Assembly: GCA_963705275.1 (NCBI GenBank)
Contig: OY970063.1
Span: 668,438-732,437 of the forward strand
Direction of reading: 5' to 3'
DNA: 64,000 nucleotides
Source of the DNA: an uncultured delta proteobacterium
GTDB lineage: Bacteria > Desulfobacterota > Syntrophia > Syntrophales > UBA2185
Under the pieces are notes generated by a model that was given only the letters and a program-made list of their open reading frames with translations, was not told the origin of the DNA and ran no database searches. A program made the translations under genes and the position numbers. Of this stretch, positions 2,852-60,096 are shown piece after piece (position 1 is the first letter of the stretch; every line of letters begins with the position of its first letter).

Positions 2852-3209
2852 GAGTTGTGAAAATTTCTGGCCGGTTCAGAAAGTTTGAACAGTCGGAATA
2901 ATATCATGAATGAGTACTTCCTGAAAGAGAGTATCCAGTAATTTAGGCAGGCGTACATACTTTCACCTGGCAATAGTTGATATTCGGTTATTATTTCATT
3001 GACACAGAAAACCACTTGCCTTGTCTCCGACCATCATGAACCAACTCCTTATCAACATTTAGCCGACCATTTCACACATTTTAGTTTCGCCTCAGGCGAG
3101 GGGTTTCCACCATCCCCATGGAGACACTAAGAATTGACAACCTCTATAAAATGTGGAAAAATATATCTTAATTTATGTGGCATCGGGGTCGGATAAAGGA
3201 GGTAACAAA

Positions 3210-3908
3210 ATGAAAAAGTTGCTTTTTGGAACAATCCTCTTAGCGTTGGTAAGCGCCTTTCCCATCATGACTGTGGCAGAGGTAGGTGTAAGTGTTGGAA
3301 TTTCTATACCACTACCACCACTTATCACATTCGAAGCACCGCCGAATGTAGTCGTATTACCAGACACCAACGGCGTTTACGCTGTTCCTGGTATAAGCGT
3401 AGACCTGTTTTTCTGGGATGGTTTCTGGTGGCGTCCGTGGGAAGGTCGCTGGTATCGCTCACCGTATTATGATCGTGGCTGGGTTTATTACGAAAGTATT
3501 CCAAGATTTTATTTTAACGTAGACCCATATTGGAGAGGATATTATCAGAACCATAATTGGCACGGTCACATTTGGAATTATCAACCGATTCCTCATTCAC
3601 AACTTCAACGAAACTGGAAGAGCTGGCAGAGTAACCGATATTGGGAAAAGAAAAGAACCTGGGGCGTTCAGGGTTATACACCTAAGCCACAACGACAGAG
3701 TCAGGTATTAAGACAGCAGAGACAAACACTATACCAACAAAGACCTGAAGTTCAACAGCATCAGCAATTTCAAAGACAGCAGAGACAAGAACAACAAAGA
3801 CAACCTCAGATGCAGCAACATCAACCTCAGAGACAACAGCAGCATAGAGGTGAATCACACCAGCAGTCTCAGGGACACGAAGGAAAGGGTGAAGAACATA
3901 GAAAGTAG
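3210..3908 (+). CDS. Secreted hypothetical protein, W/Y-rich core with a Q/R-rich tail
   Basis: AAGGAGG-N7-ATG at 3210. Signal peptide MKKLLFGTILLALVSAFPIMTVA. Aromatic-rich core (FFWDGFWWRPWEGRWYRSPYYDRGWVYY). The last ~70 aa are Q/R-rich low complexity. Confidence 0.6.
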   Translation: MKKLLFGTILLALVSAFPIMTVAEVGVSVGISIPLPPLITFEAPPNVVVLPDTNGVYAVPGISVDLFFWDGFWWRPWEGRWYRSPYYDRGWVYYESIPRFYFNVDPYWRGYYQNHNWHGHIWNYQPIPHSQLQRNWKSWQSNRYWEKKRTWGVQGYTPKPQRQSQVLRQQRQTLYQQRPEVQQHQQFQRQQRQEQQRQPQMQQHQPQRQQQHRGESHQQSQGHEGKGEEHRK

Positions 3909-13752: not shown

Positions 13753-14220
13753 TTATGAATTTGTAACAATATCAGTCTGCGGTTTTGCTTCTATAATTGA
13801 CATCGCTATTCTTGTTGCTTCTTCAGTATAAACTCTGCATCGCTCCAGCATATTCGTTGCAAAGAATCTCTTCCTGCCTTCTTCTGTCCCCAGATCACAT
13901 CCGGTCAACTGTCTGCAATTCATCGAACCGAAATTGTTTTCAAAGATTTCTATTAATTGTCTTACAGGAACATAGCTCTTATCAATCGGCTCATCCGGCA
14001 AGCTTCGTCCATAATATATGCTTATTACCATAACAGCGCCGCAGACCGCTCCACAAATTCCGCCAGTCCTTGCAATGCCGCCACAGAAGCCGCTGGCGAT
14101 TTTAGGAATCAATTCCGATTGAAAACCCTTGCCTTCTGCCACGGAAAGCAAAACGCTTTCGGCTCAACGAAACCCTGATTTGAAAAGTTCTCCACTTCGT
14201 CGAGATGTCTTCTCAATCAT
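13753..14220 (-). CDS. C_GCAxxG_C_C family protein, candidate selenoprotein (in-frame TGA at 14164..14166)
   Basis: The track ORF 13753..14151 carries GFCGGIARTGGICGAVCGA, MNCRQL and LERCRVY. The same frame continues upstream through one TGA to AAGGAG-N7-ATG (14220), giving MIEKTSRRSGELFKSGFR-U-AESVLLSVAEG. The TGA sits where the family has its first conserved Cys. Confidence 0.6.
14138..14163 (-). promoter_or_regulatory. Candidate SECIS-like hairpin immediately 3' of the in-frame UGA
   Basis: The mRNA folds as GCC-GAAAGC-[GUUUU]-GCUUUC-(CGU)-GGC: a 6-bp upper stem, a 3-bp lower stem, and G as the first loop nucleotide. Confidence 0.4.
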
Positions 14221-14441
14221 TTATATTCTCCTTTATTATTATCAAAGACGTATTTTGTTTCCAGAGGTCAGTGTTGCGAAATTTGTGGATGTATTTCAGA
14301 TTCAACAACTCCATCTCTTGCTACAATACTACATCCCCGGAATATCATAAATATATTTCATAATTCTTATTGTCGTATTCCACACTATTCCTTATAATGT
14401 AAGTTAGTATGATGTCCTCCCGACCATAAGGCTGTGATCCC

Positions 14442-22235: not shown

Positions 22236-22504
22236 TAATCTTCTCCAAATTTATCCTCAATCAATTTACCAAGGTCCTCAACAGCCTCGCCGGCGTCCAT
22301 CCCCTCTGCTCTTATCGTCAGTCGACTTCCCAAAGGGCAGGCTAACGTCAAGATACTGAGAAGACTTTTTCCATTTGCAACTTTACCATCCCTCTCAAAA
22401 AATATCTTCGCCTTAAATCGCGTAGACACATTGATGAGCTTTGCCGCAACCCTTGCGTGAAGACCAAGCTTATTTCTAATCTCGAATGTTTTTATCACTA
22501 CCAT
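22235..22504 (-). CDS. ptsH: HPr family phosphocarrier protein
   Basis: GLHARVAAKL (His15 region) and GKSLLSILTL (Ser46 region). The stop overlaps the ptsI start (TAATG). Confidence 0.9.
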   Translation of the reverse strand: MVVIKTFEIRNKLGLHARVAAKLINVSTRFKAKIFFERDGKVANGKSLLSILTLACPLGSRLTIRAEGMDAGEAVEDLGKLIEDKFGED

Positions 22505-22673
22505 GCCGGTCTCAAATACCCTCAGAAGCTTTATGATTATTTTTCTTCACTCTTAGATTCAGTTCCGTCGAAGGTGTTTGCCTAGCACGATTGTAAAACG
22601 AAGTCAATTCATTCGGCACTGCATTCATATTGTTATGATTCCATTATTAGATAGCCGATTCAATACATTTTTC

Positions 22674-22702
22674 CTTGACATTTGAAAAAATATGACTTAT
22701 AA
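22674..22702 (+). promoter_or_regulatory. Sigma70-like promoter for the Cys-rich protein gene
   Basis: TTGACA (22674-22679), a 17-nt spacer, then TATAAG (22697-22702). Confidence 0.5.
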
Positions 22703-22774
22703 GTAGAAGATTTTGTTATGCCACACTGATATTTAGGTTAATTTACAAAATAAATGATAAAGGGGGTGATTCCA

Positions 22775-23056
22775 ATGGTCTGTCAAACCGTCAAGATTGG
22801 GGCTGAGTGTGCCTTCATGACCAAGAAGGGTTGTGGTTTTAATGGAGGCAATTGTTATACAATAGCAGGTAAGTGTGAAGGTTGCATCAAAATCATAGAT
22901 TGCCCGACCGGTCAGTACTGCAAGGTCTATCCTGAGCCTTCCAGCAAATGGCTTGCTGGAAACTGTCCGACCGCATCACACATCAAGCGAGAAATCAAAG
23001 AAGCCACGCAGAAAATCAATCCGCTCAAGGCCTCCAAGAGATCGACCAAACATTAA
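22775..23056 (+). CDS. Small cysteine-rich protein (PxxKW-type motif YPEPSSKW) with a basic tail
   Basis: The RBS AAGGGGG lies 8 nt before ATG 22775 (the track ORF starts at 22754). 9 Cys in the first 62 aa. C-terminal K/R-rich tail. The family name is from memory only. Confidence 0.6.
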   Translation: MVCQTVKIGAECAFMTKKGCGFNGGNCYTIAGKCEGCIKIIDCPTGQYCKVYPEPSSKWLAGNCPTASHIKREIKEATQKINPLKASKRSTKH

Positions 23057-23063
23057 GAACGGT

Positions 23064-23110
23064 GGGGCAGGTAGCTTTCTTCATGGAGAAAAATGCCTGT
23101 CCCTTTTCTC
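23064..23110 (+). terminator. Possible intrinsic terminator between convergent genes
   Basis: GGGGCAGG ... CCTGTCCC (8 bp with one mismatch, 24-nt loop) followed by TTTTCTCTC. Confidence 0.35.
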
Positions 23111-23111
23111 T

Positions 23112-23450
23112 CTAGCCAAGAATTTTTCTTATCTGCAATAATCCTTTTTTAATTTCCCTGAACTTTTCTTGCATACTATCCCGACCCAGTTGGGATTCGC
23201 CACCTTTCATTTTGAGCAATTGTTTCTTAGCACCGCTAATGGTAAACTTGTCAGCGTAAAGCAGATTCTTTATAATAAGCAACTCCTCTAAGTCTTTTCT
23301 CCTATATAGACGTTGATATGTTCTCGTTCGAATTGGCTTTATCGATTTGAATTCAGATTCCCAAAATCTTATTACATATGTATCGACATCGAGGATTTTA
23401 CTGACCTCTCCGATGCGGAAATATTCCTTATCTGGAATTGACGCATTCAT
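23112..23450 (-). CDS. MerR family transcriptional regulator
   Basis: N-terminal HTH YFRIGEVSKILDVDTYVIRFWESEF. 112 aa. Confidence 0.85.
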   Translation of the reverse strand: MNASIPDKEYFRIGEVSKILDVDTYVIRFWESEFKSIKPIRTRTYQRLYRRKDLEELLIIKNLLYADKFTISGAKKQLLKMKGGESQLGRDSMQEKFREIKKGLLQIRKILG

Positions 23451-23803
23451 TTAGAAGTCCTGGCGTCCCAACAAAAAAGAGGTGAAAAATAGATTCTTGA
23501 AACCTTGCGGAAGCGCTTCGAAATGCCATACGCGAATACAGCGAGCGGTCATCTTGGGTCGATTGTATTATGGATTCGTTTAGTACGCAGGTTCAATGGC
23601 TTTATAACAATTTAAAGGCCCGAGGCAGCTTCAACATTCCCCTCAAGCTCATGGTAAATCCCTTGGTGCATGTCTAATTACGTCATCACCCGTTACCCGA
23701 CGGACTTGATACTTCACTTTGCACAGGCGGCCTTTTTAAATACGGATTCTTGACTTTTTGTGAATCATCCGGATTTGATGATCAGATTTTTTTGCATGTC
23801 CCG

Positions 23804-24079
23804 TCAACTATTCAGCGCTTTACGCAACACTTGACTTGACTTAAAGGTAAGCACCTTCCTTGAAGATATTTCTATTTCACTTCCCGTCTGCGGATTTCTT
23901 CCTCTCCGAGACTTCTTATCCTTCACAGAAAAGTTGCCGAAACCGGAAATCTTTATCTTCTCACCGCGAGCAAGGCTGTCTTTCATGATCTCAAAAACCG
24001 ATTCAACAATTTTCGCTGCATCCTTCTTGGAAAACCCCAGCTTTTCATACACGTCCTGAATAATATCAATCTTTGTCAT
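23804..24079 (-). CDS. ihfA: Integration host factor subunit alpha
   Basis: HU/IHF fold with GFGNFSVKDKKSRRGRNPQTGSEI. It sits directly downstream of pheT, as in E. coli. Confidence 0.9.
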   Translation of the reverse strand: MTKIDIIQDVYEKLGFSKKDAAKIVESVFEIMKDSLARGEKIKISGFGNFSVKDKKSRRGRNPQTGSEIEISSRKVLTFKSSQVLRKALNS

Positions 24080-24106
24080 TTCTAACCTCCCCCCGTCTTA
24101 CAGACA

Positions 24107-39538: not shown

Positions 39539-39916
39539 TTAAACGGCAAGTTCAAAGGCGTTTTGTATCAGCTCTATAGTAATCCCGTCAGGCAGCATCT
39601 TTATCGCCACGACATCGAATCTCGCGTTGCATGGATAGAGATGTTTCTCCTTTAGATACGTGAGGGAAATTCGCGAAACTTTTTTTTGCTTTTCCGGTCC
39701 CACGGCAAGCTGGGGATCGCCGAACTCTTCCGATCTTCTGCTCTTAACCTCAACAAAGACAATCGCATCCCCATCTCTTGCTACAATATCAAGCTCTCCC
39801 AAAGGGCATTTGTAATTGCGCTCAACTATCCTGTAGCCTCTTCTCTTCAAATAAGCGCAAGCAATATCCTCTCCTTTCTTTCCCGTCCGCATCCTGCCAG
39901 AACTCTTCATTATCAT
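39539..39916 (-). CDS. YraN family endonuclease-like protein (UPF0102)
   Basis: GEDIACAYLKRRGYRIVERNYKCPLGELDIVARDGDAIVFVEVKSR. Confidence 0.85.
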   Translation of the reverse strand: MIMKSSGRMRTGKKGEDIACAYLKRRGYRIVERNYKCPLGELDIVARDGDAIVFVEVKSRRSEEFGDPQLAVGPEKQKKVSRISLTYLKEKHLYPCNARFDVVAIKMLPDGITIELIQNAFELAV

Positions 39917-39937
39917 TCCCGATGCTGCAAAATATAT

Positions 39938-40561
39938 TCAAAACTCTATTTCGGCATTTACGTGGATGAGGCTTCTGTCTTTGACTACGAATGATCTTCT
40001 ATGAATTTTGCAATGGCCGTGCTTGTTGATCGCCTCCCGGTGCTCCGCTGTAGCATAGCCCTTATTCTTCGAAAAATTATACTGGGGGAATTGGCGATCA
40101 TAGATCTCCATGATCCTGTCTCTCGAGACTTTAGCAATAATGGAGGCTGATGCCACGGAGACGCTCTTTGAGTCACCTTTGACGATCGCTTCCTGGGGTA
40201 TGGAGACAAAAATACGATGTGGACCGTCAATGAGCAGATAATCAGGCGTCAGAGAAAGATTCAGTGCTGCCTCCTTCATGGCCACCAGTGTTGCCTGAAA
40301 TATGTTCACTTCGTCAATAAACGAAGCCTCCACAACGCCAAGTCCGATGGAAAGGGCGTCTTGCCTTATAATGTCGGACAGGTTCTCTCTCTTCTTCGCT
40401 GGGAGCTGCTTCGAATCTTTGATTTCCTTGTTCTTATAATGGGGGGGGAGTATCACGGCGGCGGCGACCAATGGTCCTGCAAGGGGACCTCTACCCGCCT
40501 CATCAATACCAGCTATTGATCTATAACCAAGTTGATGCGCACGCCGTTCGAAACTGTTCAT
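39938..40561 (-). CDS. rnhB: Ribonuclease HII
   Basis: IAGIDEAGRGPLAGP active-site motif. The start is placed at internal M27 (MNSFERR...). The track ORF extends to 40639. Confidence 0.9.
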   Translation of the reverse strand: MNSFERRAHQLGYRSIAGIDEAGRGPLAGPLVAAAVILPPHYKNKEIKDSKQLPAKKRENLSDIIRQDALSIGLGVVEASFIDEVNIFQATLVAMKEAALNLSLTPDYLLIDGPHRIFVSIPQEAIVKGDSKSVSVASASIIAKVSRDRIMEIYDRQFPQYNFSKNKGYATAEHREAINKHGHCKIHRRSFVVKDRSLIHVNAEIEF

Positions 40562-40688
40562 AGCCGGGACAAGAAACTTGTAAGAGTGGTTCTGAGTCAC
40601 TAACCGAAGACAAGAAAGGTCTCTCGCATCCCTGACCAAAAACTCAGAGGTTAGGGATGCTCGTTCTGCACTGGGATTATTTTAGTAT

Positions 40689-55391: not shown

Positions 55392-58283
55392 ATGAAACAA
55401 ATAAATAAAAAATGGCTGCAAAAGATATCGTCCGAACCAGCGTCTCCTAAATACATGGGCCGGAGGACGTTCATGAAGGTAAGCGGCGCGGCCCTGGGAA
55501 GCGGAGCCCTGATAGGGCTTCTGCCGTTATCCTGCATGCGGCAGGCAACGGTGGAGGAAAAGAGAAATTTCCCGCGGCCTGAGCTGCAGTCTGAATACAG
55601 GCGAACGATCTGTACCCACTGCTCTGTCGGATGCGGCATCATCGCAGAGCTGCAGAACGGCGTATGGGTCGGCCAGGAGCCGGACTATGAATCACCCTTC
55701 AATCTCGGCGGCCATTGCGCCAAGGGGGCCGCGGCCCGGAGCCACGGGTTCGGCCACAGGCGCGTAAAGTATCCTATGAAACTGGTAAACGGAACCTGGA
55801 CGCGCCTCTCCTGGGATCAGGCTATCAATGAGATCGGCGACAAACTCTTAAAAATCCGGCAGGAATCTGGACCGGACGCCCTTTTCTTTTGCGGGTCTTC
55901 CAAGGCAAGCAATGAGGGGGCCTATCTCCAGGGAAAATTCGCTGCCCTCTGGGGCACGAACAACGTAGACAACCAGGCGCGCATCTGCCATTCCACTACC
56001 GTGGACGGCGTCGCGAACACCTGGGGTTACGGCGCCATGACGAATTCCTACAACGACATGCGAAACAGCAAGGCCATGCTGTTCCTTGGCAGCAATGCGG
56101 CCGAGGCCCACCCGGTGGCTATGCTGCAGATTCTCCGAGCTAAAGAAGGCGGATCAAAGATGATTGTTGTGGACCCCCGTTTCACCCGCACGGCGGCCCA
56201 CGCAGACATTTACGCGAGGATCCGCTCCGGAACCGATATCCCATTCATTTACGGTCTGCTCTGGCACATCTTCAAGAACGGCTGGGAAGACAAGGACTAT
56301 ATCGCCCAGCGGGTTTATGCCATGGACGACATCCGCAAGGAAGTGGAAAAATGGCCCCCCGAAGAGGTTGAAAATGTCTCCGGCATTCCTAAAGACAAGG
56401 TATATGAGATCGCCATGACCATGGCGAAAAACCGGCCGAGCACCATCGTTTGGTGTATGGGTGTTACCCAGCATCATGTAGCAAGTCATACAGTCCGTCT
56501 GTTCTGCATCTTGCAGCTTGCCCTGGGGAACATCGGTATGTCAGGTGGAGGGGCCAATATCTTCCGCGGCCATGACAACGTCCAGGGGGCGACCGACGTG
56601 GGGCCCAATTGCCACACTCTTTCCTGCTACTACGGCCTTGCCGAAGGCTCTTGGAAACACTGGGCCGAAGTCTGGGGCGTCGATTATGAATGGATCAAGT
56701 CCCGCTTCGACATGAGCCGGCAATACGACGCAGGCGGAGGGAAGATGGCATACACCATGAATATTCCGGGCATACCCGTTTCGCGCTGGATTGACGGTGT
56801 GATGGAGGATAAGAACAATCTCTCGCAGAAAGACAACATCCGCGCCGTCTTCTTCCAGGGCCATGCGTGCAATAGCCAGACGCGGGGGGTACACATGAAG
56901 CAGGCTCTCGAAAAGCTGGATATGCTCGTGATTTCCGATCCCCATCCGACCCATATGGCCGTGATGAGTGACCGCAAGAACGACACCTATCTGCTGCCCA
57001 CTGCGACCCAGTATGAGACATATGGCACGGCCACAGCATCGAACCGCGCCCTGCAGTGGCGCGAAAAGATCATCGAACCGCTCTATGAATCCCTGCCGGA
57101 CCATACCATTTTATACAAGCTGGCAAAGAAGCTGGGCTTCGAAAAGGAGATGTTCAAGAACATCAAAGTCGCCAATGACGAGCCGCTCATTGAAGACGTC
57201 TTGCGGGAAATCAACCGCGGAGCCTGGACGATCGGCTATACGGGCCAGAGCCCGGAGCGCCTCAAGCTCCACGCACAACACCGGGGCACCTTCAATCCCC
57301 TCACCCTGAAGGCCGAGGGCGGTCCCTGCAAGGGCGATTATTACGGCCTGCCGTGGCCCTGCTGGGGCAAACCGGAGATGAAGCATCCGGGCACCCCCAT
57401 ATTGTACGACCCCAGCAAACCTGTGGCAGAAGGCGGTCTGGTCTTCAGAGCCGCATGGGGCGCGGACTACAACGGCGTGAGTCTCTTGGCTGCGGACGGC
57501 ATTTATTCAAAAGGCTCGGATATCAAGACAGGTTATCCGGAATTTACCTCTGACATCCTCAAGAAGCTAGGCTGGTGGGATGAGCTGACGCCCGACGAGA
57601 AGAAGGCGGCTGAAGGGAAGAACTGGAAAACGGATCTCTCCGGCGGCATCCAGCGGGTAGTCATCAAACACGGATGCGCTCCTTTCGGCAACGGCAGGGC
57701 CCGCTGCAACGTCTGGACATATCCCGATCCCATTCCCCTCCATCGTGAGCCGCTGTACACGCCCAGATTCGACCTGGTGAAAAAATATCCTACCTACCCG
57801 GACCGCAAGGCATACTGGCGGCTGCCCACCCGCTATCAGTCGATACAGTCGGTAAACCACAGTGCAAAATATCCTCTGATCTTCACAAGCGGCCGTCTGG
57901 TCGAATACGAAGGTGGCGGCGAAGAGGAGCGCTCCGATCCGTGGCTGGCCAAGCTGCGGCCGGAAATGTTCGCGGAAGTGAACCCGAAAGACGCGGCGGA
58001 TGCAGGCATCTTTAACGGCCGCTATATCTGGCTGGAGGGCGCCGAAGGCGGCCGGATTAAGGTGCGCGCCCTAATCACCAAACGTGTGGGTCCAGGCACA
58101 GTCTTCACACCATTCCATTTCGGCGGCTGGTTCCAGGGCAAGGACCTCTATGACCGCTATCCGGAAGGCACTGCACCGTATGTCCGCGGAGAGGCATGCA
58201 ATACAGCGACCACTTACGGATACGATTCCGTGACACAGATGCAGGAAACAAAAGCAACGCTCTGCCGGATATCGCCGGCGTGA
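55392..58283 (+). CDS. fdhA: Formate dehydrogenase alpha subunit (molybdopterin, Tat-exported, Cys-type)
   Basis: Tat motif GRRTFMKV. N-terminal Fe-S motif CTHCSVGCG. The active-site region QARICHSTTV has Cys where FdnG/FdhF carry Sec. 963 aa. Confidence 0.9.
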   Translation: MKQINKKWLQKISSEPASPKYMGRRTFMKVSGAALGSGALIGLLPLSCMRQATVEEKRNFPRPELQSEYRRTICTHCSVGCGIIAELQNGVWVGQEPDYESPFNLGGHCAKGAAARSHGFGHRRVKYPMKLVNGTWTRLSWDQAINEIGDKLLKIRQESGPDALFFCGSSKASNEGAYLQGKFAALWGTNNVDNQARICHSTTVDGVANTWGYGAMTNSYNDMRNSKAMLFLGSNAAEAHPVAMLQILRAKEGGSKMIVVDPRFTRTAAHADIYARIRSGTDIPFIYGLLWHIFKNGWEDKDYIAQRVYAMDDIRKEVEKWPPEEVENVSGIPKDKVYEIAMTMAKNRPSTIVWCMGVTQHHVASHTVRLFCILQLALGNIGMSGGGANIFRGHDNVQGATDVGPNCHTLSCYYGLAEGSWKHWAEVWGVDYEWIKSRFDMSRQYDAGGGKMAYTMNIPGIPVSRWIDGVMEDKNNLSQKDNIRAVFFQGHACNSQTRGVHMKQALEKLDMLVISDPHPTHMAVMSDRKNDTYLLPTATQYETYGTATASNRALQWREKIIEPLYESLPDHTILYKLAKKLGFEKEMFKNIKVANDEPLIEDVLREINRGAWTIGYTGQSPERLKLHAQHRGTFNPLTLKAEGGPCKGDYYGLPWPCWGKPEMKHPGTPILYDPSKPVAEGGLVFRAAWGADYNGVSLLAADGIYSKGSDIKTGYPEFTSDILKKLGWWDELTPDEKKAAEGKNWKTDLSGGIQRVVIKHGCAPFGNGRARCNVWTYPDPIPLHREPLYTPRFDLVKKYPTYPDRKAYWRLPTRYQSIQSVNHSAKYPLIFTSGRLVEYEGGGEEERSDPWLAKLRPEMFAEVNPKDAADAGIFNGRYIWLEGAEGGRIKVRALITKRVGPGTVFTPFHFGGWFQGKDLYDRYPEGTAPYVRGEACNTATTYGYDSVTQMQETKATLCRISPA

Positions 58284-59106: not shown

Positions 59107-60096
59107 ATGGCAACTCGAACCGTAAAACGGACCGTCGGCTTATTTGTTCTAGGCACGCTCTTTGTATTCCTGATGAGCGGGATTCTTTACTGGCAGGCCA
59201 TCGGCGCTGATATCAGCAATCCGCGCGCCAGCATGTGGCGCACCGTCAGGGAGGGTTTCCAGGGGTTTACCAAGGTAACAACCGCCGGTCATAAGATATT
59301 GATCGTCAACAGTGGGGAGAACTGGCGGGAGTTTCGCAACAACCTGCTCATGCCGTTCTCCCAGTGGATCATTGCCATCGCGCTGGTCGTCATGGGTGTA
59401 TTTTATATGCGCATCGGTCCCGACAAACTGGAGAAACCGAGGTCAGGAGTGAAAATCCAGCGCTATTATCAGTGGGAGCGGATTCTGCACTGGTATACCG
59501 CGGTGCTCTTCGTAATCATGGCCATCACGGGACTCAGCCTTCTTCTGGGGCGTATCGCTCTGATACCGGTTTTCGGCCATTGGGCTGAGTCGGTTTTTCT
59601 TTCGGCGTCGAAGGTGCTCCACAATTATTGCGGGCCCCTGCTTCTCATAGGCATCTTTTTGGAATTCGTCTTCTGGGTGCGCTACAACATTCCCAGGAAA
59701 ATGGACCTGGATTGGTTTAAGAGCATGGGCGGCCTGCTCGGCAGCGGCCCTCGTCCCCATACGGGTAAGGTCAACGGCGGCGAGAAGGGCTGGTTTTGGC
59801 TCATGGTCATTTTCGGGGCTGCTGTGGGCATAACGGGCGTGCTCCTCGATTTTCCGATCTGGGGGCAGAGCAGGTTCACCATGCAGGTCTCTCACGTTAT
59901 TCATGCTACTGTGGCCGTACTGTTCGTCACAGCCTCTTTCGGCCACATCTATATGGGGAGCCTGGGTGTAGAGGGTGTATTCGAAGGCATGTGGACCGGT
60001 TATGTCGATGAGGTCTGGGCTAAACAGCATTCTGACCTGTGGTATGAAGAACAGATGCATGAGAAAGAAGTGGGACGCGAGACAATGCCATCCTGA
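59107..60096 (+). CDS. fdhC: Formate dehydrogenase gamma subunit (cytochrome b)
   Basis: 329 aa. N-terminal TM segment plus periplasmic segment (NSGENWREFRN). Four further TM helices with conserved His (ILHWYT, HNYCGP, HVIHAT, FGHIYMG). Confidence 0.85.
   Translation: MATRTVKRTVGLFVLGTLFVFLMSGILYWQAIGADISNPRASMWRTVREGFQGFTKVTTAGHKILIVNSGENWREFRNNLLMPFSQWIIAIALVVMGVFYMRIGPDKLEKPRSGVKIQRYYQWERILHWYTAVLFVIMAITGLSLLLGRIALIPVFGHWAESVFLSASKVLHNYCGPLLLIGIFLEFVFWVRYNIPRKMDLDWFKSMGGLLGSGPRPHTGKVNGGEKGWFWLMVIFGAAVGITGVLLDFPIWGQSRFTMQVSHVIHATVAVLFVTASFGHIYMGSLGVEGVFEGMWTGYVDEVWAKQHSDLWYEEQMHEKEVGRETMPS

Follow-up and report, generated by a model that had tools for sequence, protein, structure and literature searches.

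A gene of the C-GCAxxG-C-C family with a probable selenocysteine codon at its first conserved cysteine in an uncultured Syntrophales bacterium

Here we describe a gene on the minus strand of a 64,000-nucleotide (nt) stretch of DNA, hereafter the window, from an uncultured deltaproteobacterium of the order Syntrophales (assembly GCA_963705275.1, contig OY970063.1, positions 668,438 to 732,437). The reading frame of this gene is interrupted by one TGA codon, and it is very probably a real selenocysteine (Sec)-encoding gene of the C-GCAxxG-C-C family that has been mis-called as truncated. An earlier reading of the letters without database searches (the sequence-only reading) had proposed a selenoprotein gene in which UGA replaces the codon of the first conserved cysteine (Cys). 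This core proposal is borne out by the family scores, by the Cys column in which the TGA falls and by the coding-like behaviour of the N-terminal codons. The features of the gene and of its mRNA, including the proposed selenocysteine insertion sequence (SECIS), are listed below, where ORF stands for open reading frame, MFE for minimum free energy and bSECIS for bacterial SECIS.

14228..14233, minus strand: Shine–Dalgarno sequence AAGGAG, 7 nt upstream of the true start
14218..14220, minus strand: true start codon ATG, from direct reading and orthologue comparison
14167..14220, minus strand: 18 N-terminal codons (MIEKTSRRSGELFKSGFR), left out by ORF and gene callers; coding-like divergence, aligning to Cys homologues
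14164..14166, minus strand: in-frame UGA, proposed Sec codon (residue 19), in the first conserved Cys column
13753..14220, minus strand: complete coding sequence of 155 residues, C-GCAxxG-C-C family (PF09719, TIGR01909), with stop TAA at 13755..13753
14127..14153, minus strand: proposed upper stem-loop of the SECIS, a 10-bp stem (+14..+23/+31..+40), from the MFE fold and the bSECIS criteria
14143..14137, minus strand: 7-nt apical loop CGUGGCA (+24..+30), part of the proposed SECIS
14142..14141, minus strand: invariant G25-U26 of the Sec forms, in the apical loop of the proposed SECIS
14121..14160, minus strand: full predicted hairpin with a 6-bp lower stem (+7..+12/+41..+46) and a bulged G13, from the fold of the window
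14138..14163, minus strand: alternative hairpin of the sequence-only reading, with loop GUUUU (+13..+17), −9.0 kcal/mol alone
Predicted peptide spanning the Sec codon: SGFR-U-AESVLLSVAEGK

Direct reading of the minus strand gives AAGGAG at 14233..14228, a 7-nt spacer and then ATG at 14220..14218. From this ATG run 18 sense codons followed by the single TGA at 14166..14164, past which the same frame is open (AESVLLSVAEGKGF...) up to the TAA; the layout of ATG, sense codons, single TGA and continuing frame had thus been described correctly. The mechanical ORF list places the gene start at TTG 14151, before which there is no Shine–Dalgarno sequence, whereas ATG 14220 has one. A start at this TTG does remove the conserved N-terminal block, as had been argued, and leaves a truncated product without helix 1 and without the first conserved Cys. 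In the 16 Sec-type sequences displayed, ATG or GTG stands at the equivalent start position in 15, the exception being L018 with an ATG one codon later, and most of the orthologues displayed, though not every one, have a purine-rich motif resembling a Shine–Dalgarno sequence 5′ of the start. TGA is the terminator of 21 of the 46 large ORFs in the window, where it is the commonest ordinary stop; therefore the genetic code is not reassigned, in agreement with the sequence-only reading.

Family membership was assessed with the 155-residue protein as query, in which U19 was written as C. The query matches PF09719 (C_GCAxxG_C_C) with 94.8 bits (5e-27; cut-off 27) over profile positions 1–117 of 118, and the NCBIfam model TIGR01909 with 70.9 bits against a cut-off of 47.4. 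The hidden Markov model (HMM) and alignment comparison that had been suggested places the TGA exactly at the first conserved Cys: column 19 holds Cys in full-length homologues and TGA in this gene, and the peptide upstream of the TGA aligns to the N-terminus of the full-length Cys homologues. The remaining conserved Cys, three of which had also been recognised, are residues 46, 56, 102 and 128; C56 (within ICGAVCG), C102 and C128 are invariant in the alignment, and C46 is a further invariant Cys in this subfamily. A search of a large protein collection returned 499 relatives, the closest of which are mostly 121–135 amino acids (aa) long and begin after the TGA. In the full-length relatives (145–156 aa) the TGA column holds C or W, and the AESVLL block comes next, as here.

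The position of column 19 in the fold was viewed in an AlphaFold2 model of the closest natural full-length Cys homologue (P0003), which is 75% identical to the present protein and shares its numbering. This model is all-alpha, with a predicted local distance difference test score (pLDDT) of 91.6 and a predicted template modelling score (pTM) of 0.89. The N-terminal peptide forms helix 1 and helix 2 begins with residue 19, while C56 lies just before helix 57–70 and C102 is the first residue of helix 102–106. Placement at the N-terminus of a helix is typical of reactive or metal-binding cysteines.

A genome scan with one genome per species yielded 80 related loci, of which 24 carry TGA and 56 carry TGT or TGC in the column of interest, so that the proposed search for Cys- and TGA-containing orthologues returned both kinds; an additional contig, L081, also has TGA in this column. 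Forms with TGA occur in Syntrophales/Syntrophaceae, Desulfomonilaceae, Desulfobacterales, Syntrophobacteraceae, Eisenbacteria, Actinomycetota and Chloroflexi/Anaerolineae metagenome-assembled genomes (MAGs). A rough neighbour-joining tree of residues outside the hairpin region scatters them over about 10 distinct clades, and the Fitch method counts a minimum of 10 changes on it. Across the 80 loci TGA recurs in the first-Cys column alone, and the downstream frame of the TGA loci is intact apart from L026; such a recurrence goes far beyond what chance would give. Ahead of the TGA, the 18 codons evolve as coding sequence: pairwise differences among the 16 Sec-type sequences, counted by codon position, are 684/499/1218, with a bias to the third position, whereas the 54 nt 5′ of the start, taken as a control, give 1590/1463/1541 and no periodicity. 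Purifying selection acts on both sides of the TGA codon.

Two of these loci call for separate mention. L026 (Syntrophales MAG, DASRZZ010000087.1, ~3166..3520) contains an additional TAA two codons ahead of the TGA and, beyond the latter, an in-frame TGA at codon 101, and is probably a decayed Sec-type copy, that is, either a pseudogene or a poor assembly. L012 and L013 lie on two contigs of one MAG (CAWJJL01, MFD04492.bin.2.26) and are paralogous TGA-type copies with nearly identical SECIS regions.

The published bSECIS model has a loop of 3–9 nt, a stem of 4–16 bp and an MFE of −7.5 kcal/mol or lower (PMC13188914, section 5), with a G at loop position 1 or 2, after which G or U often comes, and 16–37 nt between the UGA and the loop (PMC13188914). 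The MFE structure of +4..+49 is the 10-bp-stem hairpin 14153..14127 (−15.6 kcal/mol), which agrees with all of these published criteria, its spacing being 20 nt. A strict bSECIS test allowing no bulges was passed by 12 of 25 Sec sequences and by 3 of 56 Cys sequences. The lower stem of the full hairpin is seen in the window and is not conserved across clades. Loops are clade-specific, with a 7-nt CGUGGCN loop of the Syntrophales type, GGUC/AGUU tetraloops of the Chloroflexi type and an 11-nt loop of the Desulfomonilaceae type.

Because the amino-acid constraints are the same, the 56 Cys orthologues serve as a control for RNA structure at this site. Synonymous codons were resampled with each locus's own codon usage, and a scan of all hairpin centres found that the stability of Sec and Cys forms differs at two of them, ~+14 and ~+24/25. 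The 25 Sec sequences have mean z-scores of −1.24 (centre +14), −1.05 (centre +25) and −1.14 (free fold), with p ~3e-5 to 1e-4, whereas the corresponding values of the 56 Cys sequences are +0.14, −0.22 and −0.25, none of them significant. Selection for RNA structure at synonymous sites is therefore confined to the forms with UGA. The dinucleotide G25-U26, part of a Val codon, occurs in 25/25 Sec and 22/56 Cys sequences (Fisher p = 4.6e-8, uncorrected for phylogeny), and the residue encoded there varies among V, I and L in the Cys forms. In contrast, 23/25 Sec and 56/56 Cys sequences have G13, which hence carries no Sec-specific signal. These comparisons point to G25-U26 as the Sec-specific RNA determinant in this family.

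The sequence-only reading had put forward another hairpin, 14163..14138, as the SECIS. It does fold as described (−9.0 kcal/mol in isolation, z = −1.87), but its UGA-to-loop spacing of 9 nt lies outside the published range and its G13 is not Sec-specific, both of which speak against its assignment as the SECIS. The two hairpins are mutually exclusive, since both use the GCUUUC arm. That the functional SECIS is 14163..14138, or that both mutually exclusive hairpins matter, is unlikely, though several observations speak for it: four orthologues (L002, L005, L018 and L025) have it as their MFE structure, synonymous-site selection is equally strong at its centre (z14 = −1.24), and its pairs 9:21 and 12:18 show some double changes, with 78% of cells paired. 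Against these stand the 9-nt spacing, the occurrence of G13 in every Cys form and its loss from two of the Sec forms, where G25-U26 is the Sec-specific element instead, and the fold of the 46-nt context in the window, whose MFE structure is the other hairpin. Moreover, Glu-Ser codons lie on both sides of the Leu-Leu-Ser arm, so that selection for pairing with the downstream copy would tend to bring about pairing with the upstream copy as a by-product. The hairpin 14163..14138 is thus probably not the SECIS, and we favour, with moderate confidence, the +24 hairpin 14153..14127 as the SelB-binding element.

The hairpin 14153..14127 was also picked independently by a terminator scan, where it was flagged as terminator-like because GUUUUC, which encodes Gly-Phe, comes next in the window. 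An intrinsic terminator was rejected: orthologues do not keep the U-run, and the hairpin falls within conserved coding sequence. The U-run is probably incidental, although the hairpin could, in principle, cause some premature termination when a ribosome stalls at the UGA.

A number of results weigh against the assignment of this gene as a selenoprotein gene with the SECIS proposed here. In the covariance analysis that had been suggested, RNAalifold found no consensus structure over the clades, no fixed-register helix is common to all clades, and both hairpin models are 72–78% paired with weak covariation; the structure is supported instead by the synonymous-site z-scores and by G25-U26 of the Sec forms. 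Taken alone, the window has modest structural z-scores (−0.8 to −1.8), and the association of G25, besides being uncorrected for phylogeny, is accompanied by GUA at the same codon in several of the nearest Cys relatives. None of selA, selB, selD and tRNA-Sec was found in the 64 kb of the window or in the sequence flanking the 24 Sec-type loci, and no second Sec gene was found in the window by Pfam/NCBIfam annotation of about 30 ORFs and a scan for the TGA layout. FdhA, the sole classical selenoprotein family in the window, is present in its Cys form. On the structural side, a Foldseek search of the P0003 model against the PDB gave no match at E ≤ 0.001, 1H21 (split-Soret cytochrome c of Desulfovibrio desulfuricans) included, and the profile match to 1H21 is weak, covering only aligned residues 47–83 and ~120–148 (E = 7e-4 and 0.011).

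With regard to the machinery, 19 selenoproteins, SelD among them, are recorded for a cultured relative, Syntrophus aciditrophicus (PMC1794560, Table 3), and Sec decoding is therefore normal for this lineage. The organism appears to use Sec in the small protein, alongside an FdhA copy of the Cys type.

The simplest competing explanation is that the TGA is a true stop, that the gene starts downstream at TTG 14151 or later, and that the 18-codon ORF is a leader peptide or untranslated. The ORF list and the public gene calls, with their 121–135-aa products, agree with this explanation, as does the lack of visible Sec machinery in the window. It is nevertheless highly improbable. In 56 Cys orthologues helix 1 and the first Cys are part of one continuous frame, and a truncated product would be without them; TTG 14151 has no Shine–Dalgarno sequence; the starts chosen by gene callers are inconsistent; the codons ahead of the TGA diverge like coding sequence whose product is homologous to the N-terminus of the Cys forms; and RNA structure is selected only where the TGA is present. 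Still less probable is readthrough of the UGA without selenium, with Trp or Cys inserted by a near-cognate or suppressor tRNA or under an alternative code. Some database entries do translate the codon as W; however, the W of P0054/L081 is an artefact of calling a TGA-containing sequence with TGA = Trp, and TGA terminates 21 of the 46 ORFs counted above. In addition, the alternation of UGA with Cys codons at a conserved Cys column, together with a downstream hairpin bearing a Sec-specific GU, is a signature of Sec.

Least probable of all is that TGT or TGC became TGA by a nonsense change in a pseudogene or through an error of sequencing or assembly. The apparently decayed state of L026, with its additional in-frame stops, is the one observation in favour of this explanation. 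In contrast, 24 loci from several phyla, spread over about 10 clades, have their TGA in one and the same column and a frame that is otherwise intact, and purifying selection is seen on either side of it. Two independent sequencing runs (Logan contigs) have the same gene order and a truncated 129/132-aa product for this gene, an agreement at the level of the recorded gene calls. Taken together, the recurrence of the TGA, the coding-like upstream codons and the 21/46 ordinary TGA stops exclude error, pseudogene and reassigned code with high confidence.

Under the Sec assignment, translation would begin at ATG 14220, and the mRNA stem-loop 14153..14127 downstream of the UGA would recruit SelB-GTP-Sec-tRNA(Sec) by offering G25-U26 in its apical loop, 20 nt past the UGA, so that Sec would be inserted at 14166..14164 in place of termination. 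Sec19 would then stand in for the first conserved Cys at the N-terminal end of helix 2. Sec19 is most likely the reactive residue of a thiol/selenol redox or metal-binding centre formed with Cys 46, 56, 102 and 128. We infer Sec insertion itself, the exact geometry of the SECIS and this biochemical role from sequence comparison. Because the Foldseek search was empty and the split-Soret match is weak, the function stays "putative redox-active", in keeping with the family name. A bolder combination, in which the first Cys is a third, uncatalogued Sec position, the two hairpins form a switch that tunes Sec insertion and Sec19 is a selenolate ligand of a non-haem iron centre akin to that reported for the distantly related split-Soret cytochrome c, is improbable as a whole. 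If Sec19 were such an iron ligand, the gene would encode a widespread small protein with a selenium-ligated iron site, present in Syntrophales, Desulfomonilaceae, Chloroflexi, Actinomycetota and Eisenbacteria.

The consequences for public databases are more immediate. All public gene calls recovered for this gene and its TGA-type relatives are wrong, being either truncations of 121–135 residues or full-length products with Trp at the UGA. The downstream starts that callers chose for the TGA-type orthologues are inconsistent, with products of 121, 124, 126, 129, 132 and 135 aa, and such inconsistency is itself a simple diagnostic of a missed Sec codon. Trp occupies the Sec position in four full-length database proteins (P0030, P0034, P0054 and P0055); for the one entry checked, P0054/L081 (385..843), the DNA reads TGA and was called under a TGA = Trp code. 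W-containing entries of this kind could mislead alignments and the building of HMMs. The truncated calls lose helix 1 and the reactive residue, and through such calls the selenoproteomes of Syntrophales, Desulfomonilaceae, Chloroflexi and other anaerobes are under-counted.

The gene lies in a housekeeping region. The window holds priA and genes for a class-I glutamine amidotransferase, MarC, TraB/PrgY, ATP synthase a and I, a PlsB-like acyltransferase, PtsI, PheST, ThrS, tRNA-Val, Ffh, ArgS and RibD. This gene order is common only to the closest Syntrophaceae/Syntrophales MAGs (L001–L004), whose neighbouring proteins are 62–99% identical, and it marks the source as a Syntrophales-type bacterium. 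Among the neighbourhoods of the loci compared, no partner gene family recurs across clades, and the gene therefore stands alone. An Rfam search of the whole window at gathering thresholds found tRNA-Val and no SECIS or other RNA family, and at permissive E-values the region 13900..14400 gave chance-level matches only.

The formate dehydrogenase (FDH) alpha subunit FdhA (TIGR01591/TIGR01553) is encoded at 55392..58283 on the plus strand. It has Cys at the classical Sec column (ARI-C-HSTTV, residue 199) and an N-terminal twin-arginine motif, MGRRTFMK, which we read as Tat-like (twin-arginine translocation); the FDH gamma subunit follows downstream at 59107..60096 on the plus strand. Other layouts in which a short piece, a TGA and a long ORF follow one another were examined and set aside as adjacent genes, e.g., RNase HII/YraN-like and RimM. 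In the former case (39539..40681, minus strand), RNase HII-like and YraN/UPF0102-like genes, assigned to their families by eye, share one frame with a TGA at 39940..39938 between them and a Met-containing N-terminus shortly after it; the pair resembles two ordinary neighbours more than a gene with readthrough. Between ptsI and pheT, the region 22236..24106 (~1.9 kb) has no ORF of at least 150 aa, only ORFs of 100 and 112 aa, and no Rfam match at the gathering threshold.

The sequence-only reading could not recall whether Sec-containing members of this family had been catalogued, which they have been since 2007. In the Olavius algarvensis delta-1 symbiont, Zhang & Gladyshev (2007) reported three Sec-containing "putative redox protein" genes, for which there are Cys homologues and predicted SECIS elements (PMC1976440). 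Catalogues from 2022 and 2026 list the family under PF09719 (PMC9312934, PMC13188914), and the latter divides it into form 1 and form 2, which differ by Sec position or motif, with the motif entry given as "-" for both (PMC13188914). The representatives of these forms are MGD8741185.1 and WP_012158890.1. The NCBIfam name of TIGR01909 is "C-GCAxxG-C-C family (seleno)protein". Since Sec members of the family are already catalogued, the finding is not new; it is a sound annotation correction of a known kind of selenoprotein rather than a discovery, and it opens no new biological question, the family having been recognised as a selenoprotein family in 2007. There is a small possibility that the first-Cys Sec position is uncatalogued, as the texts consulted on forms 1 and 2 do not state which Cys is Sec. 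What the comparison does offer is a natural experiment of 25 Sec versus 56 Cys forms, in which G25-U26 and local stem stability appear constrained once the Cys codon becomes UGA, and this contrast refines the description of the SECIS for the C-GCAxxG-C-C family.

We note likenesses and differences with respect to three known systems. Split-Soret cytochrome c of Desulfovibrio desulfuricans (1H21), whose iron site is reported to be Cys-ligated and non-haem, shows weak profile similarity at the GCAxxG-type motif (GGISDWGTICGALYGA...), a stretch that the NCBIfam model NF047622 also matches, and at the last Cys. However, the present protein is without the haem motifs, and the similarity stops short of the first-Cys/Sec column. 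A 2003 paper reportedly described "a novel iron centre" in this cytochrome (PMID 12589573). The orthologues found here differ from the catalogued Sec-containing C-GCAxxG-C-C proteins in having been deposited as truncated or W-containing proteins, not as selenoproteins; they share with them the Pfam/TIGRFAM family, the Sec/Cys pair at a conserved Cys, the stem-loop after the UGA and the deltaproteobacterial (Thermodesulfobacteriota) neighbourhood. With respect to the bSECIS model, the stem register and loop size vary among clades of this family. The proposed element has no sequence similarity to that of E. coli fdhF, the experimental archetype, and no Rfam match, and the fdhF loop carries G23/U24, 2 nt nearer the UGA than G25/U26 here. 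In common with the model, the element lies within the coding sequence immediately 3′ of the UGA and combines a 7-nt loop, in which G stands second and is followed by U, with a 10-bp stem, a 20-nt spacing and a predicted stability of −15.6 kcal/mol.

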